A stretch of 63,003 bases of DNA, counting the filler, from Folioceros fuciformis (lineage: Eukaryota): the NCBI GenBank assembly GCA_049999805.1. It is 3 parts of 3 records of this genome, joined end to end, with 100 filler letters (N's around TTAATTAATTAA, not from the genome) between each part and the next. Parts side by side here need not be neighbours in the genome. Positions count along the whole stretch, not along the records: positions 19,661 to 51,148 come from JBNGIO010003096.1; 2 more parts are not named here. One strand, given 5' to 3'. Below are positions 3,744-41,700 of the stretch, one piece after another (position 1 is the first letter of the stretch; each line of letters opens with the position of its first letter). The notes beneath the pieces were generated by a model. The model had not been told where the DNA came from, did no database searches, and was given only the letters and a program-made list of their open reading frames with translations. The translations under genes and the position numbers were made by a program.

Positions 3744-5741
3744 TCATTGTTGTTGAAAAGGTTGCTTTTTCTCCCAAATGCAGTAACCATTTCCCACTGC
3801 TGCCACGTTGTACTCATCCAAACTGGGTGCCAGATCACCAATCTCAATTCGATCTCCAATTTTCATCACTACTCGATCATCAATCCGTGCCACGTACACA
3901 TCATTTTCTGCGGTCACAATTTCGACGTTGCTCCGGGAGTTGATTCCGTTGCGATTTCTGATGCTGATGAAGTTTTTCAGTTCTTCCTTCAGCCCCCAAT
4001 CAAAATAGTGGTCGTAGAACTGCACCATCCAAACATGAGCAGGTTCATCACTGAAGAGCTCAGGTTGCCTATCAGCTTTGGCTAAGTGAATGATACGAGG
4101 GACAGGCAGAGCGAGCCGGGCAAAAGAGGAGAAAAAGCTTACAATGCAGGGAATGCCGGGATGCGTCATGATGTACGCGTATCCCTGCAGGACTTTGTCA
4201 GAAGGGAAGGGCCAGTGGGCCTGCGTGGATCCCGTGTCGTGGTTGTCGATGAAGGTGACAGCCCTGGAGGGCCAGTACCCCAGCATACCCGGAGGCTTGT
4301 TGTTGTGATCTCTCAACCTCCACAACTCCCCATTTACAGCTTGCTGCAGAATTCCCTTGGTGGTGAAGTCGAAAGCTGTTGCTCGATCACCGGTGGCGTG
4401 CACCCAGTCCACTAGCTCCTGACGGTGGCTATCCTGGTTGTAATCCAGCCCCTGGTCACCATATCTGCAGGTAGTCCAGACTTCCCCCACGGAAAACTGG
4501 GGTTGTGTCCGCTCGATGTACATGCCCACGTATCCGCCGGCGAAACCCTTGGCAAAGTCGAACCTCCAGCCATCGAAGCCGATGTCCACCTTGAGCCACT
4601 TCATCCACTCGGACAGCTCGTCCTGCACCGTGGAGTTGGTGTGGTCCAGGTCGGGAGCCGCAGCGAAGTCCTCCCCGGTGTCAGGATTGCCAGAGCCGTC
4701 GCTGTAGGGGTAGTCGTTCCCAGCGATGGCCCATGGGCCCCAGTCCAGCCGTTCGTCAGGGGTTCCCCCTTCGAACAGGCACCACTGGCCTCTCTCATCC
4801 TGCTTGTCCGCGCACCGGTGGTTGATGACGATGTCAGCAATGCAGCGCACTCCCTTTTGGTGGAATGCATCAATCACAGCCTTGAGCGCATCCTCGTTCC
4901 CGTACTTGGTGTTGTTCAAATCCAGGAGCCTGTTAGGCATGTAACCTGCGCCCAAGCAAATCAAAAATACCAATGTCAACACCCCTGTCTTGTCAAAACC
5001 ACCGTCCAGTGCTCGGACTAGTCTAGTGATTTCGTGCAATCTGAACAGAACGAAATCAGATGACGGAGTTCCTCCGCGTCAGCTCTGCCTGACATCAACA
5101 TAACTGGCATCACTCTGTGCAAGAGTGTGAAGCAGCTGCAATGAATACCTTGAGGCGCCACAGAGTGCGTGGCCGGAGGAAACCAAATGTCTGTCACACC
5201 AGCTTCCGCCAAATCATCAACATTCCTCCTCAACACATTGTACCATCCATCCTTGTGCTTCCAAGACTCCCAATTAAACCCCTGCCAGCAACCTCGCCGT
5301 CAGGAAACGTGCCACAGCCGCCCTATTCTAAACACCTGAGCATCAAAAACGCAATGTCCTCAACGTCAAAGAGCCTCCTACCTGAAACATGATGATCTTG
5401 CTCCAATCAGCCTCAATGTTGCCGCCACGAGACACCTTTTCCTGAGGCTCCGCCTCAACCTCACCAGGACTAACTTCCGCGGCATTCAACACAACTTCCT
5501 CAACTTCGGCGGCCTCCCGCACCGTTTCCGCTCCTGCCACCGCGTGCGCGATGCAGGAAGTGCGCCCGGTACGAATTCTCCCGGAGTGCCTCAACCCAGG
5601 GTCCGCCATGGGGCCAGACCTCACTCTCACGACGCCATGGCCGCTGGCTGCAAGGCGTTTTTGCCACCGTGTCGACGTAGAGCATTCGGTCGGGCTGCCA
5701 CACTTCACCACGCTCCTCAACCCGGCAGTAAGAACCGCCAT
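3744..5741 (-). CDS. AMY: Alpha-amylase (GH13) with probable plastid transit peptide; exons 5741-5382, 5281-5149, 4945-4143, 4019-3744
   Basis: Motifs [28 protein letters not shown] (nucleophile), VGEVW and [11 protein letters not shown], plus the C-terminal beta-domain. The N-terminal extension is Ser/Arg/Ala-rich. Confidence 0.95.
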
Positions 5742-6766: not shown

Positions 6767-8559
6767 CTACATCTTTCTCGTGAGCTTGCCGCGTCTGGTT
6801 TCTTGCACAGGCTCGATACATGTGTTATCATCCAATTGCAGCATTTTCTTCGCAACTCTTTTCTGCTCCTCAAAAGCTTTCCCAAGTCCAGCCTCAACCT
6901 CCGTCACGTGGGAACGCTGCTTCTTGAGGTCGTGCTTCAATCGCCCTAGAATCTGCAGGTGTTGTTCCAAATCGGTGACCCATTGCTTCCAGGCGATGTA
7001 CTGAGTATAAGTGAACTCTGGCATTGGATGAAAAGGCTTTCTCCGGAGGATGTCAAAATACTTCATCTTAGCCTGTTCAAGAAGGGCCTCTCGCATTCGC
7101 AATCGTCCCTGATGGAGGGCCAGACTCGATTTAAGGTGCTGAGTTCTTTCTTCCGCCAGAGCCATACTCAGACGCATGTCCTCCCTTACCTCTTCCCATT
7201 TGGCATTCTCCGACATGTAGTTCCAGGCTTCGTGGTCGAATAGCTCCAGAGCGTATTCCCCACCCGAGGTCCGTATCAGCCGTCTCTTAAGATCCGCCCT
7301 AAGACTCTGCACGTGGTCGTCTAGAGCGCCACGGTATTCCACCACGCCACCGCTGGGATCCGGATTCGAACCTGCTACCTTGCCTCTGTAAGGTTCTATC
7401 TGGAGAAGCTGCGCTGGGGGTTGGGGCTGCGCTCTCCTATCAGCCTCTCCTGAAGGGCACGCATCCTGATGCAGAGCCGAACACATATCCACATCCTCAT
7501 CCCGCTTACTCTCCTTAGCCGGATCAAGCTGCCTTCGCTGATCTGCTCTCAAGGGCGGCGCACACACAGATCGATGAGACTCCGGGTGATCCGGTCGGTT
7601 TCCTCTGAAATTCTGGCACAAATCTTGATCCCGGTCTATCCCCACCTCCTTAGGCGGGATACCAGGACCAGGACCCGGACCTGCTACAGTGCCTCTGTAA
7701 GGTTCGATCTCGAGAGTCCTGGCCTGGAGATGCGGTTGTGCTCTCTTATCAACCTCTGCTGAAGGATACACGTCCGGATGCAGAGCTTGACTGAAAACCA
7801 CATCTCCATTCCTCTTAGGCTCCTTAGCCGTATCTGGTTGCTTTCGTTGATCTACTGGCGAGGGCGCGCATGCATACCACTGAGGCTCTGGCTCCTTAGT
7901 CCAGTTTCTTCTGGAATCCGAACTCAAATCCTGATCCCAATCCATCCCCGCCTCCTTAGCCGGGATACCAGGCTCCTTCCGCTGGCCTGCTTCGAAAGGC
8001 CGACAGATATCCCCATCCAGATCCAGCTCCGCCTCCTCAGCAGCAAGGCCAGGCTCGTTGGATTCCTCCATTTTCACGATTGCGAGCACAGCCTGGTCAG
8101 GCTTCGGGTCCTTGGATTGTTGCAGTACTTCTCCGAGTTGCTTGTCCTTGAGGAACAGCTGCTGTCTGCCGCCAAATCCTTCAGAGCTCGACATCGGGGG
8201 TACGCTGTGTGTATAAAACTCAGAATCCGAGTCATCGTACTTCAATTCTCCTCCTGGACCCCGCCGCTCTAGCTTCCTCAGCACCTGCCACTCCACCACC
8301 AGGTATCAGCACACATACGCATCACAACGTCGCACCAGGCAAGGGGGGAGGGAAGGAGGCGGGAAATTGAATTGGTCGCCATTCCGAAGATCAAACTTCA
8401 CCGCCTACCTACCTCTTCCACAATGGACGCTGCTTTCTTGGGATTCTGGTTCTGCAGCGCCAAATATTTCTCCGCTATGACATCAGGCACTATGGTAGAC
8501 GACGGTACAAAAGGGCGGGAGTTCTGATTTGCAACGGTTGCGGTGCGTTGCTCACACAT
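6767..8559 (-). CDS. Uncharacterised protein of about 554 aa with an internal 102-aa duplication and C-terminal coiled coil; exons 8559-8413, 8284-6767
   Basis: A 510-codon open frame joins an ATG-containing upstream frame through an in-frame GAG|GTAGG...GGCAG|GTG intron. The C-terminus is heptad-like. No family recognised. Confidence 0.7.
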
Positions 8560-9025: not shown

Positions 9026-11222
9026 ATGGAGTCGCTGGATCTTCCGGATGATGTTAAGGAAATTCTGACTTCAGAGCAGAAAGTGCTGCTGATTGAGCGC
9101 CGAAAGCAGCCAGCCGAAAATAGGGAGCACCAAAGCGGGCCAGATTGTCAAGCTTCGACCAGAGTCGCTGGTGCCAACCATCAAGATGACACGGATTGTG
9201 GCGTTCTTTCTTCTCGGATCCCCGATTCTCCTGATGTAAGTGAGACACATTCGGTTATAGGATTGTGGTTGCTCATAGTTGATGTACTGTCAATTGTGTG
9301 CTGTGGTGTAGCACAGGTGGCTGGGTATTTTTGTTCCGTCCATTCGTGGAGTGCGCCTTTCTCCTCGCTCTTTGTTTAGTTTGTTGATTCCGGAGGATTC
9401 TAATCCCTAATTGTAAGCATGTTTTCAGGATTTCTCTGCTATTGAGGTGTATTCGCATACCGGTCGTCCTCCTGGACAGGACCTCTATCATTCTCTTCCT
9501 CCTCCTCAAACACCAAGCTCCCGGCCGCCACAACGACAACAACAAGAACCGTCTCAGCAATTACAGAAAAGGAAGCATCAGCCTCAGTATTGGCCTCAAC
9601 CGCCTCAGCAATCGTACGTATTTCATCAGCATGGGCCTCAGCAACCGCCTCAGCAGCAGGGTCACCGTCCTCCGCAACCTCACCAGCACAGTCAGCGATT
9701 CTTAAATCAGCAGAATCCGCGATCATTTCCTGCGAAGGCATCGTATGACAGAGGGCATGCAACAGCTGCTCAACGGGGATCTAGTACGAGCACTGCGATG
9801 CTAAACTATGAGAGTCACCAAAGTTTACCGTGCCCGGTGAGTTACGACAGCGAACCGAATTTGGATAACAGATTCTATACGGCAGATCAGAGGCTGGTTT
9901 TGCCGAGGAAAGGTTATCCGAGTGGTACGTCCAACAGAGTGGACGAGGCTTCCCCCAGCACGAAAATGGACGAGCCTCCTCTTCCCAGAGTGCAGGAGAG
10001 TGGGGATAAGAGGACGTTGAGCTACTGGGAGCAGAGGGGCCTGCCGACTGATGGCATCCTCTTAAACAAGAAGATGTTTCTGTGCGGGCTCACACCTGAT
10101 CGGGTGCTTTTCAAGTATTTCACAAAAGTGCAGGGGTCGTTGGTTCCTGATAGGCCAATGGATAGGAAAATGCAGGAGAACATGGAAGCTTTGTATGAGA
10201 AGATCTTCGAGAAGCCTTTGAACTTGTTAGATGGTAAGGTGAGCATGAAGTTTGGGAGAGCCTTTATTGCTCAGGAACTCAAGAAAAAGAAATTCAACTG
10301 GGCTCAGTATGCTATGTCGGAATATGTTCGCATCACAGATAGAAATGCCAAGAAGGCTTTGGCATTGAGGAAGAGACAGTCGAAGCCGGTAGTAGAAAGT
10401 GATCTCGATGCTGAAGGGGATGGTGATTGGGATGTAGAGGTTGATGGGGATGGAGACGGGGATGGAGACTGGGATGGAGAAGGTGACGGGGAAGGAGGGT
10501 CAGGTGAAGGCTATGACGCAGATGAAATGAAATTGGACAGCCAATACCAAATTTCCGGGCAGGCTGAAGAGGCGGAGCTCGGTGAAAGCAACTATCATCA
10601 CTCTCGCTTGCCTTACACAGTCACCACCCTTCCCGACACCCAAATGGATCCTCACATCCGCGGTAAGTTGGATGAGGACATCCAGAAACTGAGACTGGAA
10701 TTGCAGAAAGCCCTCATACTGACAGAATGTAAGGACGAGATGGTTAGTCAGTTCGACAGGTGCGTTATGCCCTACCTGTCTGAATCGTCCAAAATGGAGC
10801 AGGAAAAGGCGGACCTACGTCAAGCACTTGTTCTGGCGGAAAACAAGTGCACGCTCCTGGAAGCCGATTTGTATTGTGTCAAGGGCAAGCAGGATATGGA
10901 GAGCATGAGCGTCCAAGCGGGCATTCAATCTCTCAAGGCTCTTGTTGCAAAGAAGCCTTTCGAGTCCGCAGACCCTGAAAGACTCGAAAGCAATCTGGCG
11001 GCCACCAAGAAATGGATCCAGGAGTTGAAGGAAGGGTGTATGCACGTGGGCTACTCGAAACACGGGCTCCAGGAACAGGAGAAGGCATACGATAAACTTG
11101 CTGCAGAGCATGCAGTAGCCTCGGCTGAGCGGATTGCCCTCACTAAAAAGCTCAACCAGCGAATGACCTCGCGGTCGACTGGGGATACGGAAGATGGCAG
11201 CAACAAGCGTCTCAAAATCTAA
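9026..11222 (+). CDS. Uncharacterised protein of about 667 aa: Q/P-rich region, central helical domain, acidic GD-repeat tract, coiled coil, C-terminal NLS-like KRLKI; exons 9026-9235, 9429-11222
   Basis: 591-codon open frame. A phase-0 intron GAT|GTAAG...TTTTCAG|GAT links it to the upstream exon MESLDLPDDV. Confidence 0.75.
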
Positions 11223-14876: not shown

Positions 14877-17800
14877 TCACTGGTACTGACTCAACTCATG
14901 GCTGCTGGTGCGGCTGATTACCGGAGAGCTAAACCGCATGGACAATGCTCCCCTGTGGGAGGGGATAAAATTGTCGACCTGATTTCCATTTCCGTTGTGG
15001 CGCTCTTCGCCCTCCCCAGAACCTCTGCCCATGGAAAATATGTCTTCCCTCGACTGATAGTCCGCTTGTCTGGGACTACCTTCAGGCGTGCGGCTAGGAG
15101 TGTGCCGAAACTTGTCGCTGTTGTTTCGTGCCTCCAGGACCAGGCCATTAACGACGTTGGACCTGGTGTGTAGACCATTTGGCGACCTCGACAGATTCCT
15201 GTATCCGTCACCACCCGCGAACCCTCCTCCCCCTGCTTGGGTTCCGAAAGGTCGAACCTGAGAGCTACCATAACCTCCACTTGGTGGAGTCATGGTCCCT
15301 GGGGTTACACCACCAGAGTAGAGGTTCCCAGGCGGCCGCTGTTGGTATTGATGACTGGTTCCTAGTGCCCTTGGGGACTCACTGCACATAAAACAGGAAC
15401 ACAGTCAAAAACGACTTGAAGACGCAGCACTAAACTCAGGCAACACAGGGTAGGGTATCAAGGATCAAACCTTGAAAAGGCCTCTCCAGATCTTCCTCTC
15501 AAACTTTGAGCAGAACTATCAACGTCGTAGGAAAATACTCTTCTGTGCCCAGGCCCCCTCCCTACATTCTGCAGGCAAAGACAGATCATAAGGCTGACAC
15601 AAAACTCTGGGCTCTGGCATCCAGACATGAGGTCAAGCAGTCAAACCAAAACTTACCAATGGTCTCATTGACGTGGTTAGTGCCCCTACATGGTCTGCTC
15701 CAGCTACCTGATCATCTGGTCGGAACATCACACTGCTAATTTGGTCATCAGCTTTCCTCAAAAACGGATGCTCCAACAGTTGGCTAGCAGTCGGTCTCTC
15801 AGCAGGATTCCTTTGGAGACAAGCTCGAATGAAGTCTTTCGCCTCATCAGACAAAAAATCCGGGATCTGAGGAAGATCCTTCGTGTGCCCTATCTTAAAC
15901 ATGGCTGCCACCTGTATCCACAAGAACAAAGGAAAAGTCTGTTCAATACAACTGGTCCACAGATGATTCACAAACGGCAAAACGTGCTAGATAGGATTCA
16001 CTGACCCCTTCATACTGACTCCACGGCGGTTTTGCTGTTGCCATCTCGATGACGGTACAGCCCAGACTCCAAATATCTACAGCCAGATCATGACCTCGGA
16101 CACTGGATTGTGGGTTGACAACCTGAAGTAGCCCACAAAAAGTAAGTGGGACTACACTCAAGTGCATGAATCGGCCATGCACTTTGCCAAGCAGCCAACT
16201 ACGAGCAAACGTACCTCAGGAGCCATCCAATATGCTGTGCCCTTCACGGAGTGAGTTGACTGGTACCGAGAAATCTGCATTACCAAATTCAGAGTCAGTA
16301 GTCGTCCTTCAACAGTAACACATGGAATCAAAAAACCACAATTGTTCCCTGTAAATTACGGGCTAGAGAAGTTTGGTCACTACGCATACATGTTTGGCCA
16401 TTCCAAAATCAGCAACCTTGACTTGCCCCTCATTGTTTACAAGAATGTTTGCTCCCTTGATATCCCTGCAGCAGGCACCAGGGAATTCTTCAATTGACGG
16501 TCATAAGGCATCCTAAGACGACAACCAAACACGTAGGGGCCACGTTGTATAGTACCTGTGGACAGTGTTCATACTGTGAAGGAAAGATAGGCCCGCAAGT
16601 ATCTGGCGAGTATAGTTGCGGATTAAAGGTTCCTTGAATGCACCATAGTCATGAAGTAGCTTGTGAATAGAACCTCCTGAGACATACTCCAAATATATGT
16701 ACAGCTTGTCTTCAAACTGAAAAGAGATAAAACACATGAGTTCTTCATACTTGGAAAAGTCACCAACATGATGGAAAGTAAGAACAATGGAGAAGCTCTG
16801 ACCGACGGAAAACACTTCAAACAGTGGACAACTTACAGAGTCACTTGAATAGTACTGCACAATATTTGGATGCTGAAACCGACTCAACATGGCTATTTCC
16901 TGGACGCACAAGAGAGTTTCAGAATCAACCCCCAGGAAATACACAGCTAGCGGCGGTTCCAAGGGCAACATACAAAGATTGGCCATCTCAAAGAGAAAGC
17001 CAGCGTATGCTGTCGCAACAAAATGCATCATGAAATATTTACTTTACAACCAAACTGAACTTTCCTCCTCAACTACTCCTCGTACCTGCTCTAATTGCTT
17101 TACACTTTCCCTTGACTTGCTGTCATCAGACACAAGCAGAACCTCCTTCATCGCACAAGATTTACCACTATGGCTGCCAAGAAGAATTTATATTAGCACC
17201 ATCCAAACATACAGTATGACCTTGACAGGCTGCAACAGAAACCACAAAAAAAAGGAAATCAGCTAGACAACGGGCTGGAGGAAACAGGGATTTCGTTTTA
17301 AGTAGAAAACATCGGCCTAGTTCTATGTATCATCAGAGGAAGAGCATCACACCTGTTAAAACCTTTGTAGACATTACCAAATGTCCCACTCCCAATCAAC
17401 TGCCCCTTTTTCCATTCATTCGGAATAGGTTCAGCCCTAGCACCTTCTGCTCGAGCTGGCCGAGGCGACTGCGCCATTGATACATACTGAGTTGGATGGG
17501 CAAAAGGAGGGGCGTTGGTATAAGCTGGTGGAGGTAGAGGTAGAGGATGTGCCATCATCATTCTCTCATCAGGCCAACCGGGTGAATCGGAGCCCCTCCC
17601 ACCGACAACGGGGTGCAAAGGAGAGACTGTAGCACTCTGACCTCGTGAACTTGGACCTGGACTCCGGAGTCTTGGACTTAGGATGGGAGATCTCTCTGGG
17701 CTGGTTTTCTGCCAGACAAAGTGATCTCCAACTGAGGAATTATGACCAGAGTTGTAGACCGAGCCCGGATTAGAGCCGAGGGCTTCTGTGCTCTTGGAGT

Positions 17801-18822
17801 GCACATAAGCAGTTAGAGCTCCCTGGTCTTGATGTGTGAGCCTCCTCGGACTGCGAGAGGGACTCGACATGGAACTGTCAGGTGCGCTAAGCAAACCATT
17901 CACATGCGGTATATGCAGGGGAGGAAGCTCGCCAGGTCGCCTTGAAGAAGTGACTGCCGGCTGCCCACCCAGATGAGGACTGGCAGGGCGGGATAGATCA
18001 ACCCGGGAATTCCTTCTGCTGTGCTTCGGAGTAGGCTGAACAGAGCCTCCTTGCTGAGTTCTGAATACCAGAAAGAGAACAGCGATTATCACTTGAAGGC
18101 GGGATTCAATACGAGGAAGTAGATTTCCACGCAAGGTACAGTGGCAACGGCAACCATTTTCAAAGTAACCACAGCACACCACCATCCTGGACTAAACTGC
18201 AAGACAAGCAGCAACCGAAAGTAAAGAGCAAACGACGGAATCCTGAGTCTTACGGGAATGGTCGTGCAGCATCGATCATCTCCCCATCTTGGGGTGGCCT
18301 CAGGTTCGAGATGCGATTAGACACACCAAGCGTCCATGCTTCAGCACCCATTTGGTCACCACTGGCTACTGAGCTGACACTAGAACCCGAACCCGAACCA
18401 CAACCAGAAGTCAAACCGTCAGCATCCACAGGCTCCAATTTGGCCGCCAACTGCGGATAGGAATGCGAAGGCATGGAAGATCCATGCTGAGGAAAGTAAC
18501 CAAGTTGCACGTGCAGTGGGACCTGCGACGAAAATTGCACACCAGAATGTGTCCTTCCCAAAGGAGGAGCACACGGCAAGGGCAGAGGGGTTCCATGCGA
18601 GGGACGATCTCTAAAACTAGGAGAGCGTGTAGCTGGGGTAGGAGGAGAAGGCGACCTGGGTGACTCGGCTTCAGACGGCAGTTCTAAGCTCTGCCTAGAC
18701 CTTCTAGAACTACCATCGTCCTCCGATTGACTATGCTTGGTTCTGCTTCTCAATATCTTGGGGAGACGAGTGAGAGAGCCATCAGCCTTGGGCTCCTTCG
18801 GAGACTTCTGCCACCAGGGCAT
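14877..18822 (-). CDS. YDA: YODA-like MEKK-type MAP kinase kinase kinase; 11 exons (18822-18254, 18060-17353, 17173-17086, 16899-16837, 16716-16556, 16465-16390, 16274-16215, 16122-16006, 15911-15657, 15568-15471, 15381-14877)
   Basis: Starts MPWW. The long Ser/Pro-rich N-terminus has PLPLP motifs. Kinase motifs [75 protein letters not shown] and VAAMFKIG are all joined in frame. Confidence 0.92.
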
Positions 18823-19560: not shown

Positions 19561-19660
19561 NNNNNNNNNNNNNNNNNNNNNNNNNNNNNNNNNNNNNNNN
19601 NNNNTTAATTAATTAANNNNNNNNNNNNNNNNNNNNNNNNNNNNNNNNNNNNNNNNNNNN
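19561..19660. other. Assembly gap spacer (44 N + TTAATTAATTAA + 44 N)
   Basis: Exactly 100 nt with a six-frame stop linker; the same structure occurs at 51149. Confidence 0.97.
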
Positions 19661-20024
19661 GTCGTCGAGCTCATCGTGCTTCTCTTCGTTTCAAAGTCGT
19701 CGAGCTCGTCGTGTTTCTCTTCATTATTCTCGTTTTGGAAATGCTTCACCCACAAGTACGGCTCAAAATTTATCTCAAGCTAGGCATAAGGACCATGTAG
19801 TTAGCACATTTTCAAGCCCCCATGCATACCTTAGTCTACTTTACCTTTGCTGATTTCGTGGATGTGGATATGGAAGGGCACGAGGATGGGAATGGGAATG
19901 AGGAGAGCAAGGTTTTAAGTGTTGGTGAATACCTACTAAGGAAGATAAAAAATACGGGCAACAAAAGTTGGTTTTTCCATAAAACCCTAAATCTATGGAG
20001 AAACTTGTTTTAGAAGGAGCGATA

Positions 20025-20450
20025 GTTTAGGCATTAGGGGTAGACTCTTGTGAACAAAAATGAATAAGAAGGGTACTAATCGTACACTCTTATGCACATG
20101 GGAATATAGAATAGGGTAGTGACTAAGGGTACACTCTTGTGTACAAGGGTGAATAAGATGGGTATTAAGGGTAGGCTCTTATGTACGAGAGTCAATAGGG
20201 CAAGCATTAGGGGTAGACTCTTGTGCACAAGAATGAATTGATAAAGGATTAGGAGTCAAGTCTTGTACACAAAATGAATAGGATAGGCATTAGGGGTAAT
20301 CTCTTTTCCAAAGAAGTGAGTAGGATAGATGTTAGGGGTAGGCTCTTGTGCACAAAAGAGAATAGAATAGACATAAAGGGTAGACTCCTATAGGGTACAT
20401 GTTACAGATGGATACTCTTGTGCACAAGAGTGAATAAGATAGGCATAAAG
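20025..20450. repeat. Degenerate tandem repeat of about 43 bp (GCATTAGGGGTAGACTCTTGTGCACAAGAATGAATAAGATAG)
   Basis: The core GTAGACTCTTGTG or a variant recurs at about 20040, 20082, 20128, 20171, 20213 and onward. Confidence 0.88.
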
Positions 20451-21067
20451 AGGGGCATTAAGTGTAGAGTAACAACATAAAAGGATGTACAAGGTCAAAC
20501 AAAGGGTGTGACCTTTTATGAAATGATATGCTTCCAACCATCAAATAAATGGTAAGTAATGAAATTAGGTTTGGTTAGTATTAATTAGGTTAACTAACTA
20601 GATATTATAACAGGAGTGTCTATACTCAAAGGACAGCCATAAAAATTGTGTTTGTTTCCTGCCCCCATATTTCCTGAGCTTTCTATCTAGGGTCACCCTA
20701 TATTACACAAAGAAAATAAAACTACGATATGGTATTTAACTTTTTTTAAGATATTTATAAATTCTTAAATACAAGACATGAAATTGATATGAATTGTTTG
20801 CATTGTAATTTTCCCGTGGGGTATTGTCTATGGCTGCCACTTACTAGAGCCAGTGGTGTTGCCACATCCAAGACTTAGCCTTGCCTACAGGTAGAGCAGG
20901 ACCTCGGGCACAAGGGAGGATCATCCTCCCTGCCCACTTCGGTATGCGATAGAGGCATGTAAATACAGTACATACATATGTACGTATCGATCTAGCTATC
21001 AACCTACTTAATGTGCCTCATTTTTGGAGATCGGTCTTTGTGAAATGGCCACGGTATGGTCACTTGA

Positions 21068-23653
21068 ATGGTCATGGATAGAGCAGGAGGTTGTCGGGTT
21101 TACAGCGATTGTACGAGCCGTTCCCGCTCACCTCACTTCAAGGACTCAACCCCTGGGAGACAATCAGTCCTTCAGTGCAGCAGTGTAACTATCCAAGCAG
21201 CTCAACTTCAGAAAAGACCTGTTGGTGAGGATGGACTTTCCACCGATCGTCGTTGCTATGAGCAGGAGCTCCTGTGGCAACAATTCTTTCTGGAACCTAC
21301 CATGTGGTGGGACAACAGACGAGATAAGAAGAGCTCCCGCTCGCCTGACTTCCGGCGTAAAGGATCTCGAGAGGTCCTCTGGTTAAACAGTTTGTTCAAG
21401 CCAGCTTGGGTGAATGAGAAGCTCGTTTCTTGGGATGTCCAGATGGGTCATGGTGCCTCTCCTTCTGAATGGAGCTTTGCAGGTAGGCCCGGGCATGGCA
21501 GGCGTGCAGAATCGGAAGTGAGCGCCGTAACTCCAGCAACCGTGAGCGAGTTATGTCAGCAGGGGAAGCTTACTGAAGCCGTTGGAGCGTTGGAAGCTCT
21601 AGCGACAGCAGACTGTCCTATTTCTGTGTCTGTGTTTTACACTGTGCTAAAACTGTGTACAGCTAAGGGGGATCTGGTTGCAGGGCAACAAGTGCATGAT
21701 CTCACTGTCAAACTCGGGTACCAGTCCAATACATTCTTAGGGAACCATATCTTGCGCATGTATGCATGTGGAGGATGGCTACAGGAGGCGATGGACGTGT
21801 TCACCAGGGTAGGCACACCAGATGCTTTCATGTGGGGCTCCATAATCTCCGCACATGCTAAACATGGGAAGCCTAACGAGGCCATACAATTGTACCATCA
21901 GATGCGTAGGTCAGGTGTGAAGAAGGATGCGCACGTCTTTGTAGCAGCACTCCAAGCGTGTGCACTCGCCGCCGACTTGGAATCTGGCAGCCAAGTGCAC
22001 CAGGATTTTCTTCAGAGTGGCATTCCTCCTAACTTGTTTGTTGGCACCTGCTTGGTGGACATGTATGCAAAATGTGGCGAACTGCAAGATGCACGCCGGG
22101 CCTTTGACAGTTTAGCCGCGAAAAATATAGCCGCATGGACAGCCCTGATCGGTGGGTATGCTCAGCAAGGGCTCGGTCAAGAGGCGCTTGTTCTATATGG
22201 GCAAATGGAGCAGGAGGGTCTGTTTGTGGGTAACGCTCTTACTTTTGCTTGCCTTCTGAAGGCCTGTGCCAGCACTGGTGCCATACATAAGGGCCGGCAG
22301 CTGCACTCGCAGATTGTGGAAAGTGGGCAGCTGGATAACATCGTGTTGGGTAACTGCCTGGTGGACATGTATGCGAAATGTGGCAAACTGAACGATGCAC
22401 TCCACGTTTTCGACAGCTTGCCCAGAAAGGACGTGGTGACATGGAATGCCCTGATTTCGGGATATGCACGGCAAGGGCTTGAGGAAGAAGCGCTTGTTGT
22501 GTATGGTCTAATGGAGCGGGAGAGTCTGATAGTGGCTGATCATGTTACTTTTGCTTGCCTTCTGAAGGCCTGCGCAAGTGCGGGTGCCATACAGATGGGC
22601 AAGCACCTGCACTCACAGATTGTTGAAAGAGGACTGCTAGATAACATAATGCTGGGTACCTGCCTGGTGGACATGTACGCCAAATGTGGCGATCTGAAAG
22701 AGGCACGCCAGGTTTTTGACAGCTTGACCTCAAAAAATGTGGTGACATGGACGGTGCTGATAGCTGGGTGTGGGACTTGTGATGATGGTCACAAGGGACT
22801 GGCTTATTTTGAGGAGATGTTAGTCGCTGGTGTTCAGCCGGATGATGCTACTTTCACTTGTCTTTTAGTAGCATGCAGTCATGGGGGACTCGTGGATGAG
22901 GGTCGGAAGCTCTTTAGTTCTATGGCTGAACACCACGGCATCAAACCCACTATGGAGCACTACACTTGCATGGTCGATCTTCTTGGGCGTGCAGGCCATT
23001 TAGACGAGGCAGAGAACATGCTGTCCTCATGTGGGAGCCAAAGCAATGTTGTGGGATTGACGTCTTTACTGAACGCTAGCAAGAGTCACGGGGATGTAGA
23101 GAGAGCGACACGGTGTTTTGAAAGGCTCGTTAGACTGGAGCCTCAACGTGCGTCGGCATATGTGCTCATGGCCAATGCCTATGCAGATGCAGGTAGGTGG
23201 GCCGATGCAGAGAGGATCGAAACACAGAGGACGGTAGCAGGAGCTTACAAGAAACCTGCATTAGCAAGCATTGAGGTGGAAAAGCGGGTGCATACATTCG
23301 CGGTGGGAGAAAACAGAGATGATATTGCGCTGGGGGTGGAAAGCATAAATTCGCGTCTGAAGCAGGAAGGAGGCCACGTACCACACACGAAGTTGGTGTT
23401 GAGGCCTCTGTGTGAGAAGGAAAAGGAAGATGTGCTTTGCGGGCATGCTGAAAAGCTGGCTCTGGCTTTTGGTCTTCTGAACACTCCAAGTGGAACGCCT
23501 CTGCTGGTAACGAAGAATCTACGCATGTGCAGTGACTGCCACACTTCCACGGAGATTATGTCAAGGGTTGAAAAGAGGGTCATCGTTGTAAGGGATGGAT
23601 ATCGTGCACATCGATTCTCCGCCGGTTTTTGCAGCTGTAAGGGCCGACCGTGA
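21068..23653 (+). CDS. PLS-class PPR protein with E1-E2 and GRP-type DYW:KP deaminase-like domain (candidate U-to-C organellar RNA editing factor), with N-terminal OSB-like PDF motif
   Basis: Intronless 861-aa frame: (L-S-P)x3-L-S-P2-L2-S2-E1-E2, then KKPALASIEV...CGHAEKLA...NLRMCSDCH...CSCKGRP. KP box, HAE and terminal GRP replace the canonical PG box, HSE and DYW. The N-terminus has WWDNRRDKKSSRSPDFRRKGSREVLWL. An upstream exon carrying a targeting peptide cannot be excluded. Confidence 0.93.
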   Translation: MVMDRAGGCRVYSDCTSRSRSPHFKDSTPGRQSVLQCSSVTIQAAQLQKRPVGEDGLSTDRRCYEQELLWQQFFLEPTMWWDNRRDKKSSRSPDFRRKGSREVLWLNSLFKPAWVNEKLVSWDVQMGHGASPSEWSFAGRPGHGRRAESEVSAVTPATVSELCQQGKLTEAVGALEALATADCPISVSVFYTVLKLCTAKGDLVAGQQVHDLTVKLGYQSNTFLGNHILRMYACGGWLQEAMDVFTRVGTPDAFMWGSIISAHAKHGKPNEAIQLYHQMRRSGVKKDAHVFVAALQACALAADLESGSQVHQDFLQSGIPPNLFVGTCLVDMYAKCGELQDARRAFDSLAAKNIAAWTALIGGYAQQGLGQEALVLYGQMEQEGLFVGNALTFACLLKACASTGAIHKGRQLHSQIVESGQLDNIVLGNCLVDMYAKCGKLNDALHVFDSLPRKDVVTWNALISGYARQGLEEEALVVYGLMERESLIVADHVTFACLLKACASAGAIQMGKHLHSQIVERGLLDNIMLGTCLVDMYAKCGDLKEARQVFDSLTSKNVVTWTVLIAGCGTCDDGHKGLAYFEEMLVAGVQPDDATFTCLLVACSHGGLVDEGRKLFSSMAEHHGIKPTMEHYTCMVDLLGRAGHLDEAENMLSSCGSQSNVVGLTSLLNASKSHGDVERATRCFERLVRLEPQRASAYVLMANAYADAGRWADAERIETQRTVAGAYKKPALASIEVEKRVHTFAVGENRDDIALGVESINSRLKQEGGHVPHTKLVLRPLCEKEKEDVLCGHAEKLALAFGLLNTPSGTPLLVTKNLRMCSDCHTSTEIMSRVEKRVIVVRDGYRAHRFSAGFCSCKGRP

Positions 23654-24267
23654 GCGCGAAGAACTAGAACGACAAAGCGGGGGGCCTGGTAAGGCGAACT
23701 GTTCCGTTTCACGCGGAATTGGCGCTGTAAGACTGAGACTGTGAACCGTGAGCACTAGAGCAACTAACTGATAGGCGGCGCCTGGGGCCGACGGTCGGGT
23801 AGATACGTATCCCTGTAATGCACTGTACTGTAACATCTTCTCCAGCACTCTCGAGGGGTAGTGCAGTGCCCGCTGTATTGCGAGTCTTGTAGCAGACGCA
23901 GCTTCAAGTCGTTGGGCACAATGCGACACAATTGCCCTTGTCATTAAGTCACTTCATTTCTCCCTTCGCCGTGCTGTGCTAGCACGTCAGATGCCCTATG
24001 GTATAACCCCTTGCAAAAGAACAGACACCGACCCGATTGCTTGCAGTTCGGTAACAAGGATTTTCGATGTTTTCTCATAACTCAACCAGGAGAAGAATTA
24101 GTCAACTTTGATCGGGATGTCCCATGTAGTGTGACTGTGTGCCTGACCTCAAAATCAGGGCAAGAGGATGCCGGGAGCAATCTGGGAGGAGACCCTCAGA
24201 GTTTGAAAAAACTTGTCACCATGACGCATACAGGCAGGCATGTGAACACCTAGGCAGTAAACTAGTC

Positions 24268-25708
24268 TTATTCTACCTTCTCGACGGGCACCGGTATTCC
24301 CGTGTCTATGACATTATCCTTCACAAATCTGCGAGAGGAGAGAGAGCACGCATCGATAAAAGAAGAAGGCACAATAAACACAAGCACATTCTCAGTCTGA
24401 CGATACATGCAAACACTTCTAACCTGGCTAGTTTATCCTGAGATGACTGAAGTATGGTAAGTGAAGTGATTAGGAAGAAAACAAAAGCTGCAATGTCCAC
24501 ACGACCATCAGGATAAGATAAGCGAGTCACAATCCCAGGTGCCCGTCAATAGTGCTATCAAAATGAACTTCACTGGAAGCTGAGGCACGAATCTCTTTAC
24601 CAGAACCAAAAAGGACGTAAAAACCACCCTCCACATCGATTTCCGATTTATCCTCCCTAGATGAGGAACCCCGCATACACTCAGTGAGTAAGCAGCATAG
24701 ATCACGGCAATGGAAACCTTGGAGACCGAGGGATGAAAGCGTATATTACCAGACGTAATGAACGAGAAGATGCTTGGGCCATCTGTTCGAGTCCCAAAAT
24801 TCCATCTTCACGTCTGGATGCTCGTTAAGATCTGCAATTATCAAGTGGGACAGTTGAAAGATGTCCTACTAGCTCACAAGAACACATCATGTCAAGATTG
24901 CAAAGTCTAGAATATCCGGTAGAATAGGGACATACACTTCTCAGGCACGTCCCCAACTTTTGCTGTCACACCTACCAAGTCTCCTCCAGTGTGTTTCTGC
25001 ATGTGTTATGACAATGAGCATCCTACTAGAAAACATCAGGCGCGGGTGCTCAGAAAATTGGCTGCTCTGGAACAGACTCACCAGGGTTACATGTATCATG
25101 GTTACATTTGGGCTTCTCCTTCCATAGACAAGCAGCCAAGGTGTGGAAAATTTCTCAGTCCCAAACTGCAGGGCTCTGCAAAACTCAAAGAAAACTGCGA
25201 AGGTCACAGATAAAAGACAGCAGCATTTTCCATTCGTCTTGCGGCCATGAACTGCCTCTACCCTACAAAGAAAACCTTACTCACAATTTGACCTCATCCG
25301 ATCCGGTATAGCCGACTGGCTTGGGAACAGGCACTACCACCTGGAGTACACATCAAAAGCAAGTGAGCAACGAGGTTGACCGAGCGACGCTTCAAGGTTG
25401 CGTAGATGGACGATATGGTGCCTGACTCACCTCCTTGTTTATACCAAAGCGCGGACAGTGCCGTCCTAGTTGATCGTGCCACTCTGTTCTGTACTGCAAG
25501 AAAGCAAAGACTCAGGAAGGTTCAAAATTGGAGCTTTCGAACCAAATTCGAAAGCTCTGCTGTCTAACCCGATCGGAGAAACACTTACATTGTGATACTG
25601 GCCCTTCAGCGACATCGGCACGACGTCTCCTGGGGCGTAAGCTGCGCAAAGCAGCAGTGAAGCAAGGGACACCAGGGCCCCGACCAGAAACCGAATCCAT
25701 CCTCCCAT
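24268..25708 (-). CDS. NPU: NPU-like conserved single-pass membrane protein (homologue of Arabidopsis NO PRIMEXINE AND PLASMA MEMBRANE UNDULATION), multi-exon
   Basis: Spliced peptide: signal peptide, AYAPGDVVPMSLKGQYH, RTEWHDQLGRHCPRFGINKEVVVPVPKPVGYTGSD, FGTEKFSTPWL, EFWDSNRWPKHLLVHYVWEDKSEIDVEGGFYVLFGSG, TM segment, QSSQDKLARFVKD...EKVE*. This matches the NPU family as I recall it. Confidence 0.82.
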
Positions 25709-26519: not shown

Positions 26520-28724
26520 GAAGAGCCATGGAGCCTTTCAGGAGCAGCTGGGGCTCAGCAAGTCGGAGCTTGCCCAGTGGGATGCTGCGTTGCCGCGTGG
26601 GACCGAGTTCAGGTCCCACGGTTGAGGCCTCGGTGAGGCAATGCGAGGAGGCGGAGCTGGGCGAGGCTGTTGATGCGTTGGATGTTCTGGTCCAGCAGCG
26701 GGGTATCGAATGTTAAAGAGGTGCGTGGCGCGGAATGACCTTGCGTTGGGGAGGCGGGTTCATGGTCTTACTGTCGTTAGTGGGTATGAAGGCAAGGCCT
26801 TCCTAGGCAATCACATGATTGGGATGTATGCTGGTCATGGCAAATTGGAGGAGGCAGTGCAGGTCTTCACCGAAGTGTCCAGCCCCAATGTCTACATGTG
26901 ATCCTCTATCATCTTTGCGCATACCCGACATGGGCAGTCCAGGGAGGCTGTAGCCCTGTATCGGCGGATGCGAGAGGCTGCGAGTGTGGAGCCTGATGAT
27001 TGTATCTTCGTGGCAGCCCTAACGGCCTGTGCCTCAGCACATGACCTGGACTCTGGCAAGCAGGTGCGTGCTGATGTAGTGGCAACTGGTGGAGAGGGGT
27101 CTGCTCAACATGTATGCTAAGTGCGGGCAACTTGGGTGATGCTCGCGAGGTGTTCGATAGCCTGCCCAGGAGGGATGTGGTGACATCGAATACCACGATG
27201 GCCGGATACAATCAGCAGGGGCTCGGGCAAAGAGGCTCTGACCCGGCACTCAAGGATGCAACAGGAGGGCACAACGAGGCCTGATCATGTCACGTTTGTG
27301 GGTCTTCTCTAAGCCTGTTCCAGTCTTGGAGCCCTTCACGAGGGCAAGCACCTTCACTTGCAGATTCGTGAAAGAGCTTCAAGCTAACGTTTTTGTTGGC
27401 AGCTGCCTGGTGGATATGTACTCCAAATGTTGGGGTCTGGACGATGCTCGCGACGTGTTCGACAGATTGCCCACAGGAAATGTGGTGACATAAACAGCCA
27501 TGCTTGCAGCATATTCTAAGCAGGGGCTTGGGCGTGAAGCCCTGGCTCTGTATGCCAGTATGCAACGTGAGGGCATCACTCCCAGTAATCGTGTTGCATA
27601 TGTGTGCCGGCTTCAAGCATACGCTAGCGTGGGGCGCTGCAGCAAGGGCAGAAGCTTCAGTCGCAGATCCACGATAGAGGTCTTCAAGCTGATGACTTCA
27701 TTGCCAGCTGCCTGGTGGACATTTATGCAAAATGTTGGAGCTTGGAGCATGCTTACGAAGTGTTTCAAAGGCTACCTAAAAGAGACGTGGTGATATGGAA
27801 CGCTCTCCTTACCAGCATAACCAGCTAGTAAGGAGAGCGGAACATAGTGACGGTCACACTGCCATTTAGGGTTTAGCATATGCCGATGCTTGAGGATGGT
27901 GTGAAGCCAAATGAGACAAGCTTCTTGTGTCTCCTTGCGGCATGCCGTCACTCTGGGCTGCTGCATGAGGGCCGTCGGTTTTTCAAGATGATGATTGACG
28001 ATTGTGGTATTATCCCCACCGATTCTCACCACAACTGTATAGTTGATCTCCTTGGTCGTGCAGGCAAGCTGGATGAGGCTATTCATCTTCTACAAACCAC
28101 ATCCTTTTTGGATAAGTTGATGGGCTGGACAGCGTTGCTGATCGCGTGTAAAAGCCACGGTGATGTAGAGCGTGGACGACGATGTTTTGAGCATCTTGTA
28201 GAACTACGAGCAGTGCGAGTTCTTACTCGCTGTTGGGGAACATTTATGCGAATGCAGGCATGTGGGGCGATGTGGATAGGATAGAGAGGTTGAGAAAGTC
28301 AGCAGGTGCTAGGAAGAAGCCTGCAAAGGCATGCATCGAAGTAAAGGGTGATGTGCACGAGTTCACCGTAGGGGGAGACAGATCTGATCTGACGGATCAT
28401 CCAAGGTGAGGAGCATGAATATGAGATTGAAGGAGGAAGGCGGCCACTTGCCACAAACGCAGCTGGTGTTGAGGCCCATTTCTGAGAAGGAAAAGGAGGA
28501 TGCACTGTGTGGGCATCCTGAGAAACTAGCCTTACCCTATGGTCTGCTGAATACACCAGTTGGCACAACTTTGATTGTCACCAAAAATCTTGTCATGTTC
28601 AATGACTGTCACGATAGCTCTAAGATCATGTCACACTGTCGAGAAGCGAGAGATCATAGTAAGAGATGCACATCGGATACTTCGGTGCCAAAACGGCTCT
28701 TGTTCATGTAGAGACGGATTTTGA
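26520..28724 (+). pseudogene. PLS-E-DYW:KP PPR pseudogene
   Basis: PPR motifs are spread over several frames with stops (for example 26899, 27491) and frameshifts. The remnant DYW reads KKPAKACIEV...EGGHLP...LCGHPEKLAL...KNLVMFNDCH, then after a frameshift VEKREIIVRDAHR...CSCRDGF*. Confidence 0.9.
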
Positions 28725-29499: not shown

Positions 29500-29860
29500 G
29501 GTCGACGTAAGGAAGGGGGACCAGGAGCTCTCGTGGCAACAATTTTTTATGGACCTTAGCATGTGGTTGGACTATGGGCGAGATAACAAGACATCCCGTT
29601 CGCCTGACTCCCGGCGTAGGGGCTCCGCCGACGAGGTCCTGTGGTTAGATAATTTGTTCAAGCCGGCTTGGTGGGAAGGGTAGCTCAGTTTCTTGGACAT
29701 GGCAGACGGGTCATGGTGTCTCTCCTTCCAAGTCGAGCCGTCCTTATGAGCCTGACAGGCTTGCAGGATCGGAAATGCGTGACAAGGGATGGGTACGGTG
29801 TACATCGATCGATGTGCAGTTGGTTGTTGGTCTGAGCGCGGCCTCACCCGCCACAGCATC
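29500..29860 (+). pseudogene. Isolated N-terminal fragment of a PDF-motif PPR gene
   Basis: QELSWQQFFMDLSMWLDYGRDNKTSRSPDSRRRGSADEVLWLDNLFKPAWW* is colinear at DNA and protein level with 21260-21480. No PPR array follows. Confidence 0.85.
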
Positions 29861-38929: not shown

Positions 38930-41089
38930 TCAGTCTTCCGGGGTCTCCTTCAGCAAGAGCGAGCTCGAGATAGCATTAGGCAGCGACTGCACCCTGCTTC
39001 CGGTGGTTACTGCCTGCAACGGTGTAGCATCCGCAGCAAAGGGGAGCAGTGGGTCTTGGTCCTTCAGCCGCTGTAGCGTAAACTTGTAAACCATCCTTTC
39101 GTTCAACCCTTTCTCGAAAGAGCGCTCGACTATCTCATATAACCCATCATAAGTATACATAACACCCGACGGACTTCTGACACAGGCGTGCCCTCTGATG
39201 ACGCGGATGGGGATTTCCAATTTGTGGCTGTTCCACAATGCCAGATTACCCCTGACCAATTTCTGATCCGACGCCTCCTTTCCGCGGCCGACGAGCCCTC
39301 CTTGTCCCGTGTACACCACCGTCTCGCCATTGTCCACATCATCTTTGTACACCTTGTCTTTTCCGATTACGACACTGGTAGCATACGCCTCCTTGCGTTT
39401 CGAGTCCTTCTCTGGCACGTAACCAATACCAGCGCGAATATGTCGATGCAATCCAATAACGCACAGATATATACGGAAGGGGAATGCGTCACCCACGCGC
39501 ACTCCTTTAATATGTCCTTCCACATCACTGAAGTTGAGCCAGAGTCCTTTGTGCCTCATGAACTGGGCGGCCTTCAAATCTGGTCTCCTGATCGATACTG
39601 CCTTTTCCTCACATTCCTTTTGGATCAACGTCCGAACCCTATCGAAATTCTCCCGGGTCGTCTCAACGACCAGTCGGAATGCATCTTCCGCTGTAACCTC
39701 GTTCTCCGTCTCCAGCTTCGGCAAGCGAATGGCACGGTCCAGCGAGCCTTCCTCTAGCATCCTGTCCAATGTAGAAAGTTGAGAGACCACTGGTGCAGGA
39801 GATCCACTAACAACAATATCCTTGGGCTTCCTGGGGAGACTTTCTTCAAGCGGCGCCGGTACATCAAGATCGGAGTTGCCTTCGGACATGGAAGCCCGCT
39901 GGATGAATCTTCCTTCCCTCCCCTTGAGAAGACGCCTGGCCTTTCTTGCGTAGCACAGAGGCCCTTGAGAAACAGTATTGGCAGCAGGATTTGTTGGAGC
40001 TGGAAGACACGGAACTGTAGGCTCCACCGATGGCTCGTCTGCAACGAGACCACCAGAAGGTGCCATCACAACGGCACTACTGCTTGGGTCTCTTGCAGCC
40101 GAATCCGAGACAAGACCTTCCAGCGTCTTCAGCAAATGGGAGGCAGTCTCAACCGGAGAGCGGAGAGGAGACGATGGAGGACTGGCACGAGAAACCGTGT
40201 CACTTGGAACGTCTATCACCTCCTCTTTACATACGACTGAGCTCTTCACCGCAAGCGGCTGAGGGCTAGGTGATACCCCTGCCGCATCTGCATCCTTCGT
40301 GTGGCATTGACACACGCCATCGACAATCATCCCGTCACACAGGTGATCCAGCAGACAGCCATCTTCGTAGTCCTCGTCCTCCTCCAACTCAATGTCATCT
40401 TCATATAAAATTTCGGGCTTCTCTGTTTTCACCTCCACCAGTTCCGTCTTGACAGTACTGCACGGAACTTGAATATTCATGGTCTGTGTCTTGACAACAT
40501 CAGAGATAGTCACAGGTTCCGGCTTGACACAACTTGGATATGTCGGCAATGGAGGAGGAGGACTCAATGGGACGTAATCTGGGGCCCAGATGCTGGACAC
40601 TGGTTCTTCCATTTTACAGACAAACGATACGCTAGGTGAAGCATAAGAAGGCAGGGAGTAGGAAGGCAGTGGACAAGCTGTTGCCACAACATGATTGACA
40701 CGTTGAGAGAGAGGGGACGCAGACAGATGAGAAACAGCAGGGAACTGGAACTGGAACTGGAGGGACCCTTGAAGAGGCGCAGGCGGTGGCATCTGTAGTG
40801 TTGACAGGGGGGACTGGAAGGGTAAAGAAGGATACGATGGAACTGATAAGTATGAAGGAGCCTGGTGAAGAGACGAGATTGAAGTGTACTGAGGGGAAGG
40901 AGGCTGAGGGTGACTATAAAGAACTAAGTTCGGCGGAGCACGAGCATGAAGAAATGGCACAGCGTAAGCCCTGCCAGTCGCTGACCCGTAACCATTGCAG
41001 TAGGGGGGGATACTCCGCCACCTATCCGGCACACCTTGCTGCCGCGCCAACGCTGCGGCAGCAGATTCTTGGTCCCTACTTTGCTCCAT
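38930..41089 (-). CDS. Intronless SRA/YDG-domain protein (SUVH-like) lacking pre-SET/SET
   Basis: RRPDLKAA followed by the SRA domain GHIKGVRVGDAFPFR...GLH...AGI...YKDDVDNGETVVYTGQGG...DQKLVRGNLAL...IRVIRG...YTYDGLY...YKFTLQR. The ORF stops about 40 aa later. The N-terminus is long, disordered and Pro/Ser-rich. Confidence 0.88.
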   Translation of the reverse strand: MEQSRDQESAAAALARQQGVPDRWRSIPPYCNGYGSATGRAYAVPFLHARAPPNLVLYSHPQPPSPQYTSISSLHQAPSYLSVPSYPSLPFQSPLSTLQMPPPAPLQGSLQFQFQFPAVSHLSASPLSQRVNHVVATACPLPSYSLPSYASPSVSFVCKMEEPVSSIWAPDYVPLSPPPPLPTYPSCVKPEPVTISDVVKTQTMNIQVPCSTVKTELVEVKTEKPEILYEDDIELEEDEDYEDGCLLDHLCDGMIVDGVCQCHTKDADAAGVSPSPQPLAVKSSVVCKEEVIDVPSDTVSRASPPSSPLRSPVETASHLLKTLEGLVSDSAARDPSSSAVVMAPSGGLVADEPSVEPTVPCLPAPTNPAANTVSQGPLCYARKARRLLKGREGRFIQRASMSEGNSDLDVPAPLEESLPRKPKDIVVSGSPAPVVSQLSTLDRMLEEGSLDRAIRLPKLETENEVTAEDAFRLVVETTRENFDRVRTLIQKECEEKAVSIRRPDLKAAQFMRHKGLWLNFSDVEGHIKGVRVGDAFPFRIYLCVIGLHRHIRAGIGYVPEKDSKRKEAYATSVVIGKDKVYKDDVDNGETVVYTGQGGLVGRGKEASDQKLVRGNLALWNSHKLEIPIRVIRGHACVRSPSGVMYTYDGLYEIVERSFEKGLNERMVYKFTLQRLKDQDPLLPFAADATPLQAVTTGSRVQSLPNAISSSLLLKETPED

Positions 41090-41700
41090 ACCCAAAACCT
41101 AACGGACCTTCTTGAAAACTCAAGCAGGAGCGCGGAGCAGGTAGCGGAGCACAGGCCGCTGGCAACACTTCCTCTCACTCTCCATGCTTCCTGGTGCAGG
41201 TCTGTCACACAAAAATTTCAGAAACAAGTACGAGTTGACAGCAGAGCAACTCTTTCGTCCGTGATCGCCCCCAATTGGCCAAGAAACGGCCACAAGCCGC
41301 AGACAATAGACATTGACGGCGGGGAGCAAGAACCTACCGTAATTGCCTCACATAACGCGGCAAGGAGATGGTCACATGAGGCAAGGGAGCGGCGCCGCCA
41401 AGGAGGCGCCCCGCCGTGATGCGCTGCAGGAGGCGCACATTGGCGCAAGATACGAGTCGCAGCGTAGAGCGCTAAGAGACGGAGACGCGGGCACCACGCA
41501 GGGGGGGCCTTCAGCGCTGATGGCCGCACCGAACAGAACCGGCAAAAAGTTCCCTTCACAGACGCTGCTCCAGAAAGTCCCCGAAGCTTGCAACAAGAGT
41601 GGTTAGAGGATCGAAAAGTGCACTCTCTACATTTTGATAAGCGAATGGCCAAACGCCTATGAGTTCCACTTGTCGCCATCACGGTACTGGTCACCCAGAA

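Follow-up and report, generated by a model that had tools for sequence, protein, structure and literature searches.

What would a motif treated so far as the hallmark of the OSB genome-maintenance proteins do at the head of a predicted RNA-editing protein? The question is raised by a gene in a stretch of DNA from Folioceros fuciformis (NCBI GenBank assembly GCA_049999805.1), the whole of which, 63,003 nucleotides including filler, is referred to here as the window; it consists of three parts joined end to end, and positions 19,661 to 51,148, within which the gene lies, come from JBNGIO010003096.1. An earlier note on this DNA had described the gene as a candidate U-to-C RNA editor, that is, a PPR protein ending in a GRP-type DYW:KP deaminase domain, fused at its N-terminal side to the PDF motif of OSB proteins. 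The searches described below identify both ends of the predicted protein as such, and point to an apparently undescribed PDF-PPR architecture that is widespread in non-seed land plants and is not peculiar to U-to-C editors.

Domain order of the predicted protein

The gene is a single uninterrupted open reading frame (ORF) for which no intron is required (Table 1), and its first ATG is abutted by a TGA at 21065-21067. Pfam finds PPR (1.5e-66), PPR_2 (1.5e-59), E_motif (1.5e-13, residues 674-736) and DYW_deaminase (3.3e-31, residues 769-859) in the encoded protein. Our own segmentation resolves about 15 PPR motifs of 28 to 36 residues in the order P?-L-S-P-L-S-P-L-S-P-L-S-P2-L2-S2; P, L and S types are all present, and tandem motifs of 35/36, 35 and 31/32 residues alternate. 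Judged by this domain order, the locus is an intact, intron-less plant nuclear gene whose product, a PLS-class PPR protein of organelle RNA editing, belongs to the type associated with U-to-C editing. The leader in front of the PDF is presumed to be an organelle targeting peptide; PDF-bearing homologues have 40-80 residues N-terminal to their PDF.

To establish what the N-terminal segment is, the 71 residues encoded at 21233-21445 were used in an exhaustive HMMER search of 1.84 billion proteins, which returned 590 proteins at E<=1e-3; of these, 121 reach E<=1e-10 and 16 reach E<=1e-30, and 2 to 13 copies of the motif occur in many of the 590. A word-indexed search with the same fragment gave 4 candidates, none of them significant. 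One of the HMMER matches, P0040, carries the name 'protein OSB1, mitochondrial-like [Populus nigra]', and a profile of 17 PDF copies found 990 proteins at E<=1e-3, with OSB1, OSB2 and OSB3 names many among the 120 listed. The earlier note had proposed a profile comparison with OSB PDF motifs, and this comparison is significant: residues 61-127 reach 78.0 bits (E 2e-26) against a profile built from 333 PDF segments. On this evidence the segment is genuinely homologous to the OSB PDF motif, as had been read from its WWDNR...PDF signature, and its span of about 21248-21448 is a few codons wider than the 21266-21413 originally assigned to it. The second, degenerate copy suspected upstream at SRSRSPHFK (residues 17-25, 21116-21142) did not materialize, as the profile, run with filters off at E<=100, reports one domain only, and a six-frame scan of the window with the PDF profile is also empty at 21116-21142.

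Pfam contains no PDF model, and for this reason domain surveys are blind to the motif; no family is returned for residues 1-171 or for the 66 N-terminal residues even at E<=10. The SSB OB-fold was detected at E<=0.01 in 6 of 10 PDF matches tested, 2 of these lying above the Pfam cut-off, and it precedes the best-matched PDF copy in five of the six proteins and follows it in P0002. No SSB match is present in the whole window protein at Pfam E<=1 or in residues 1-171 at E<=10. OSB proteins have a PDF of about 60 residues with the same invariant residues as the window protein, but in a different setting: one or more PDFs lie C-terminal to an SSB-like OB-fold, whereas the window protein has no OB-fold and a single PDF before its PPR tract, and PPR-linked PDFs form a branch of their own on the tree described below. 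By its domain content the window protein has a module in common with OSB proteins without being one of them. The PDF also occurs in odd contexts (P0002, P0060 and P0051), which include a Kingdonia uniflora protein with 13 copies and two gene models with 3 copies each, a kinesin of Coptis chinensis and an 'interactor of constitutive active ROPs' of Striga, in which neighbouring genes may have been joined.

Among 61 PDF segments, OSB-type and PPR-type alike, seven residues are invariant (D27, R29, K32, D39, F40, L49 and W59), and W15, W25, W26, W50, K43 and P57 are conserved in at least 90%; the window copy retains all of them. An AlphaFold2 model from the alignment of these 61 sequences has a mean pLDDT (predicted local distance difference test) of 92.8 and consists of a helix (2-20), short strands (25-27, 40-42 and 48-49) and a second helix (59-70). 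Foldseek comparison of this model with the PDB returned nothing better than E 5.5, no chain reached Z>=5 in a VIA-align comparison with 48,161 chains (highest Z 4.6), and the PDF profile had 0 matches at E<=1 among PDB sequences. This lack of a clear match does not show that the fold is new.

The C-terminal domain was aligned with 11 KP-like and 6 PG-like relatives. KP replaces PG in the first box, which reads KKPA in the window protein vs K-x-P-G in the PG-type relatives, and xHP is lost, all KP-like rows having a 4-column gap where the PG rows show SHPQ or GHPH. Both sets of zinc ligands, HxE (HAE 793-795) and CxxC (CSDC 821-824), are present, the lysine of TKNLRMC falls at domain position 88 or 89 depending on where the count starts, and GRP stands in place of DYW at the C-terminal end. 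HAE, the lysine and methionine of TKNLRMC, CSDCH and the CSC before the final KGRP are all common to the KP group. Loss of xHP, M92 and the GRP end are reported as marks of DYW:KP and hornwort GRP domains (PMC9478123), and Lys88 is reported to be essential to U-to-C activity (PMC11845758). Solved DYW domains of the PG type (9kfx, 7w86 and 7o4e) match the domain at E 7e-36 to 1.5e-27. By alignment, the domain belongs to the GRP subgroup of DYW:KP and carries every sequence mark that could be tested; Pfam and the alignment agree with the earlier description of a domain with KKPA, HAEK, CxxC and CSCKGRP, including its start at exactly 23249.

The closest known counterparts are the GRP-type DYW:KP PPR proteins of hornworts (Gerke et al. 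2020, as cited in PMC9478123), from which the proteins KP2 and KP3 were designed. These have in common with the window protein the PLS tract, E1 and E2, the KKPA box, the loss of xHP, HAE...CxDCH, the KNLRMC lysine, the NLRMC methionine and the C-terminal GRP. They differ in that the descriptions of them, in the portions available, are silent on an N-terminal PDF and that designer KP2 and KP3 are without one, whereas the window protein has one.

Table 1. Features of the PDF-PPR gene and of its predicted protein, with positions in the window.
Feature	Position	Strand	Remarks
Whole coding ORF	21068..23653	+	861 codons + stop
Leader, residues 1-60	21068..21247	+	8 K/R, 6 D/E, 13 S/T; includes SRSRSPHFK
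PDF motif, residues 61-127	21248..21448	+	profile match; WWDNR (residues 80-84) 21305-21319, P-D-F (residues 93-95) 21344-21352
PLS-class PPR tract, residues 159-660	21542..23047	+	Pfam + own segmentation
E1 and E2 motifs, residues 661-727	23048..23248	+	Pfam E_motif + own segmentation
DYW:KP deaminase domain, GRP subgroup, residues 728-861	23249..23650	+	Pfam + alignment
KKPA, residues 728-731	23249-23260	+	domain start
HAEK, residues 793-796	23444-23455	+	HAE (793-795) = zinc site
TKNLRMC, residues 815-821	23510-23530	+	holds active-site lysine and methionine
CSDCH, residues 821-825	23528-23542	+	CxxC = CSDC 821-824
CSCKGRP, residues 855-861	23630-23650	+	protein C-terminal end

Spread and origin of the PDF-PPR architecture

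The combination of a PDF with a PPR tract extends well beyond this locus. A PPR tract is present in 16 of the 150 listed matches to the PDF query, with the PDF N-terminal to the tract in all 16, and Pfam confirmed PPR repeats in 10 of 10 such proteins tested, two of which also have a DYW domain. Among the 120 listed matches to the profile, 33 were recognized by eye as PPR proteins (30 from Diphasiastrum complanatum, 1 from Adiantum and 2 unnamed); 28 of these have an E motif and 4 a DYW domain. Further members were recognized by their source names in Sphagnum, Calypogeia fissa, Ceratopteris richardii and Pteridium aquilinum, the last as transcripts. Examples include KAJ7517631.1 of Diphasiastrum complanatum, KAI5076972.1 of Adiantum capillus-veneris, KAH7415344.1 of Ceratopteris richardii and CAM6033764.1 of Sphagnum compactum, along with Calypogeia fissa proteins and the Pteridium aquilinum transcripts, and their existing annotation is hypothetical or PPR only. 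As in the window gene, the order is N-terminal PDF (1 to 3 copies) followed by the PPR tract, mostly with an E motif. Most of these proteins, however, end in an E motif or in a canonical DYW (the latter in Sphagnum, Calypogeia and Diphasiastrum) rather than in a KP-type domain, and those of the clubmoss often have two or three PDF copies where the window gene has one.

No seed-plant name occurs among the named PDF-PPR proteins of the samples examined. Among the best 120 of 3839 relatives of the whole window protein, the PDF was found in 0 of 4 Cryptomeria proteins and in 0 of 7 labelled 'Gb_', which we take to be Ginkgo. We found no literature linking the PDF to PPR proteins, in a search that did not extend to the original hornwort KP and OSB papers and their supplements, where an earlier mention is possible. 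The available portions of a survey of domain fusions in editing factors (PMC13386178) give no PDF-PPR link, and 'PPR' does not occur in those of a 2026 survey of OSB evolution (PMC13393729). The architecture is widespread and apparently undescribed, and the window gene is a further member of the GRP-type DYW:KP family.

A FastTree phylogeny was reconstructed from 666 distinct PDF segments over about 60 columns, 111 of the segments being from PPR proteins. The PPR-linked segments cluster together: 107 of the 111, including the window copy, fall in one group of 120 tips with a support of 0.88. Twelve of the 13 other tips in this group are proteins of at most 250 residues, several with tails that resemble the start of a PPR tract; the thirteenth, P0037, has 366 residues and is left uninterpreted. 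The tree requires 14 label changes, vs 98-104 in 200 shuffles of the labels. This clustering points to a single lineage of PPR-linked PDFs and to one old fusion, as an indication rather than a proof. The lineage covers liverwort, moss, clubmoss, fern and GRP-type (hornwort-type) PPR proteins irrespective of their C-terminal domain. With more than 100 PPR proteins from five land-plant lineages carrying it, the PDF would be a mobile module, a putative single-strand binder common to organelle DNA maintenance and RNA processing.

Possible roles of the PDF motif

The earlier note had suggested that the PDF could serve as a built-in cofactor of the reverse editor, and had proposed counting how often it accompanies KP-type as against PG-type domains. 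The count was made on the best 120 of the 3839 relatives, a sample that is biased because it was picked by similarity to the window protein and in which several proteins without a PDF were called on short contigs and may have truncated N-termini. Within it the PDF accompanies 3 of 16 KP-like and 11 of 26 PG-like domains, so that it is not more frequent with the former, and it is also found with 2 of 5 other DYW domains and in 20 of 73 proteins with no DYW domain. The window gene is accompanied in joining a PDF to a KP-type domain by P0276 (59% identity to the window protein) and P0141 (54%), both ending in GRP, and by P0336, which ends in DRH. A cofactor specific to U-to-C editing is nonetheless a most improbable role for the motif, since PG-like and DYW-less proteins bear it as well, PDF proteins of Sphagnum and Calypogeia end in DYW, and designer GRP proteins free of a PDF are reported to edit U to C (PMC9478123). 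Thus, of the earlier interpretation, the GRP-type KP domain and the identity of the PDF stand, but the module as a special feature of reverse editors does not. Because the PDF is carried by canonical-DYW and DYW-less PPR proteins too, the fusion is, on this distribution, a general and old feature of PPR proteins of non-seed land plants and not an adaptation to U-to-C editing.

Any role of the PDF presupposes that it is part of the working protein. It could instead be removed with the transit peptide, be bypassed by a later translation start, or belong to a silent gene; in favour of this, the leader is a presumed targeting peptide, and the ORF opens directly after a stop, so that its true 5' end may lie elsewhere. 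Set against this, the invariant residues of the motif are all intact and in frame with 734 further codons, whereas a decayed copy 8 kb away shows what an unconstrained PDF looks like (WLDYGR, PDS), and the order PDF then PPR is kept across land-plant lineages, Pteridium transcript ORFs included. Furthermore, a 458-base contig of run X1 matches 21310-21767 exactly and with no joint, spanning the PDF core into the PPR tract, and the cover of the neighbouring minus-strand gene by the same run has four skips with CT..AC ends, as complementary DNA would give. The PDF-PPR junction is real, the X1 contig weakly supports the presence of the PDF in the product, and its absence from the working protein is very unlikely.

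We favour, giving it about an even chance, a reading in which the protein is a KP editor with an accessory PDF that would bind single strands without sequence specificity, next to the PPR footprint on its 5' side. The N-terminus of a PPR tract faces the 5' end of the bound RNA, and because of this polarity the PDF would lie 5' of the footprint. The protein would be imported into the mitochondrion or plastid, where the PPR tract would read a specific RNA; the fifth and the last residue of each P and S motif, read by the general PPR code table with S2 assigned to -4, predict 5'-U G? n A A n U U n A G n A n n n followed by the edited base. This register of S2 is as reported in PMC10482289. The KP domain would convert U to C along the lysine-dependent route that designer KP proteins are reported to follow, while the PDF would not be required for catalysis and, lying on the RNA next to the footprint, would add affinity or hold the site unfolded. 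The PDF is regarded as accessory because designer GRP proteins already edit U to C without it; the GRP-based KP2 and KP3 are reported to do so in E. coli at about 26% and 22%, respectively (PMC9478123). Likewise, moss PPR56 is reported to edit in E. coli when cloned without its N-terminus (PMC10482289), and the AtOSB1 PDF reportedly suffices to bind single-stranded DNA (PMC6963530, PMC4166229).

Several points weigh against the accessory RNA-binding role. Nucleic-acid binding by the PDF of a PPR protein is putative, by analogy with OSB proteins, and the PDF is lacking in 13 of 16 close KP relatives, some of them short-contig gene calls with N-termini possibly cut; these 13 would therefore make the PDF dispensable. 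The PDF tree (FastTree) was built on a short alignment of about 60 columns, with many of its rows paralogues from one clubmoss, and the RNA nature of run X1 is a guess. As regards the enzyme itself, the window protein reads RDGYRAHRF near its C-terminus vs RDAHRVHRF, which is conserved in its closest relatives, and according to PMC11845758 it is still unknown what activity natural KP proteins have. Because U-to-C activity has been shown for designer consensus proteins only, "candidate U-to-C editor", the term of the earlier note, is the right level of claim.

A further point of this kind leads to a different role. OSB1 and OSB2 are reported to prefer single-stranded DNA over RNA (PMC4166229), and the PDF is described as the part of OSB proteins that binds single-stranded DNA (PMC4166229, PMC6963530), which favours DNA or nucleoid tethering over RNA binding. 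The PDF would then hold the editing factor on single-stranded DNA of the organelle nucleoid or of the transcription bubble, so that editing would be coupled to transcription and the PDF would be off the RNA target. The OSB-type invariant residues are retained in PPR-linked PDFs, as this alternative would have it; on the other side, the motif lies directly before an RNA-binding tract, where contact with RNA would be sterically simplest. Tethering to DNA is, in our view, rather unlikely, though it deserves attention.

Alternatively, the PDF of PPR proteins may be a protein-contact module, serving self-association, docking on its own PPR or DYW domains, or recruitment of a partner, as with MORF in seed plants. 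Its model is a compact and confident mini-domain with no recognizable nucleic-acid-binding fold among solved structures, and MORF genes are reported only from seed plants (PMC5515838), the very group whose names are absent from the PDF-PPR proteins sampled. Yet no partner of the PDF is known, and tryptophan, arginine and lysine abound on its conserved surface, as they do in the OSB copies that bind single-stranded DNA; we consider a contact module improbable. The MORF/RIP proteins of seed-plant editosomes offer at most a possible functional parallel to the accessory reading, as accessories that would improve RNA binding by PLS-class PPR proteins; they have no sequence or fold relation to the PDF, and MORF acts in trans.

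Taking the parallel further, the N-terminal PDF might be an ancestral helper that PLS-class editing factors have carried within them since a single fusion predating the split of the land-plant lineages. Having multiplied with the PPR family in bryophytes, clubmosses and ferns, it would raise or stabilize RNA binding in cis as MORF/RIP proteins came to do in trans in seed plants. This extended scenario is doubtful. If true, it would imply that seed plants lost the fusion, and that natural KP proteins bearing a PDF may edit better than designer versions that lack it. The set of PDF-PPR proteins also provides a concrete handle on how the editing factors of non-seed plants do without MORF helpers. 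There is also a practical side, as U-to-C editors are wanted as programmable RNA tools and GRP-based designer proteins reach roughly a quarter efficiency (PMC9478123); a natural accessory module found on U-to-C enzymes is a cheap add-on to try.

Surroundings of the gene

Contigs of runs X1, X2, X6 and X14, all four taken to be RNA as a guess, were compared with 19700-25500. No contig of these runs covers 19700-20863, which says nothing on a further 5' exon. Depth over 20864-21057 comes from X2 only (3.07), and over 21058-21251 it is 0.89 in X1, 28.9 in X2 and 23.5 in X6. At 21252-21445, the bin that holds the PDF, summed contig depth at a DNA identity of at least 90% exceeds that of the adjacent upstream bin by a factor of hundreds to thousands, and this is seen in the organism of the window and in three other coded organisms (X1, X2, X6 and X14). 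The pattern suggests that these species have many paralogues with very similar PDF-coding DNA.

Two relatives of the gene that look decayed lie downstream of it. The first (26522-28711, +) is a second KP-type PPR-DYW gene, with PPR and DYW matches scattered across all three plus-strand frames; its first box is KKPA, but the zinc site reads HPE and the cysteine of CxDCH is replaced (NLVMFNDCH). The PDF profile finds no motif in front of it, and it probably represents a paralogue of the PPR gene that has become a pseudogene. The second, 8 kb downstream, is an orphan, degenerate PDF-coding fragment (29510-29698, +; 28.4 bits, E 3.3e-10), with WLDYGR for WWDNR and PDS for PDF and with no PPR tract after it. 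The DNA of 29519-29777 is 76% identical to that of 21260-21520, and the fragment looks like the remnant of a local duplication of the 5' part of the PPR gene.

Next to the PPR gene, a convergent gene occupies 24200-25500 (-). Skips at 24655-24749, 24831-24936 and 25175-25285 are present in all four runs, and one at 24996-25082 in X1, X2 and X14; all have CT..AC ends, which on the minus strand correspond to GT..AG introns. An X1 contig extends from 23527, inside the 3' end of the PPR gene, to 24328.

The remainder of the window resembles plant nuclear DNA, as judged by the neighbours that Pfam identifies. Long ORFs at 9417-11222 (+), 6767-8305 (-) and 17298-18191 (-) have no Pfam match. Two identical blocks of 44 N, 12 bases and 44 N (19561-19660 and 51149-51248), 31.6 kb apart, are at the filler positions between the joined parts, the first of them 1.4 kb ahead of the PPR gene. 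The identified genes, all on the minus strand, are an alpha-amylase (3744-5078), a SAD/SRA-domain protein (38930-41098) and a BAHD-type acyltransferase (46936-48731), the last divided between two overlapping ORFs, either by an intron or by a frameshift, and a copia-type long terminal repeat retrotransposon ORF at 57810-59408 (-) has gag, Pol beta-barrel, GAG-pre-integrase and integrase core domains.

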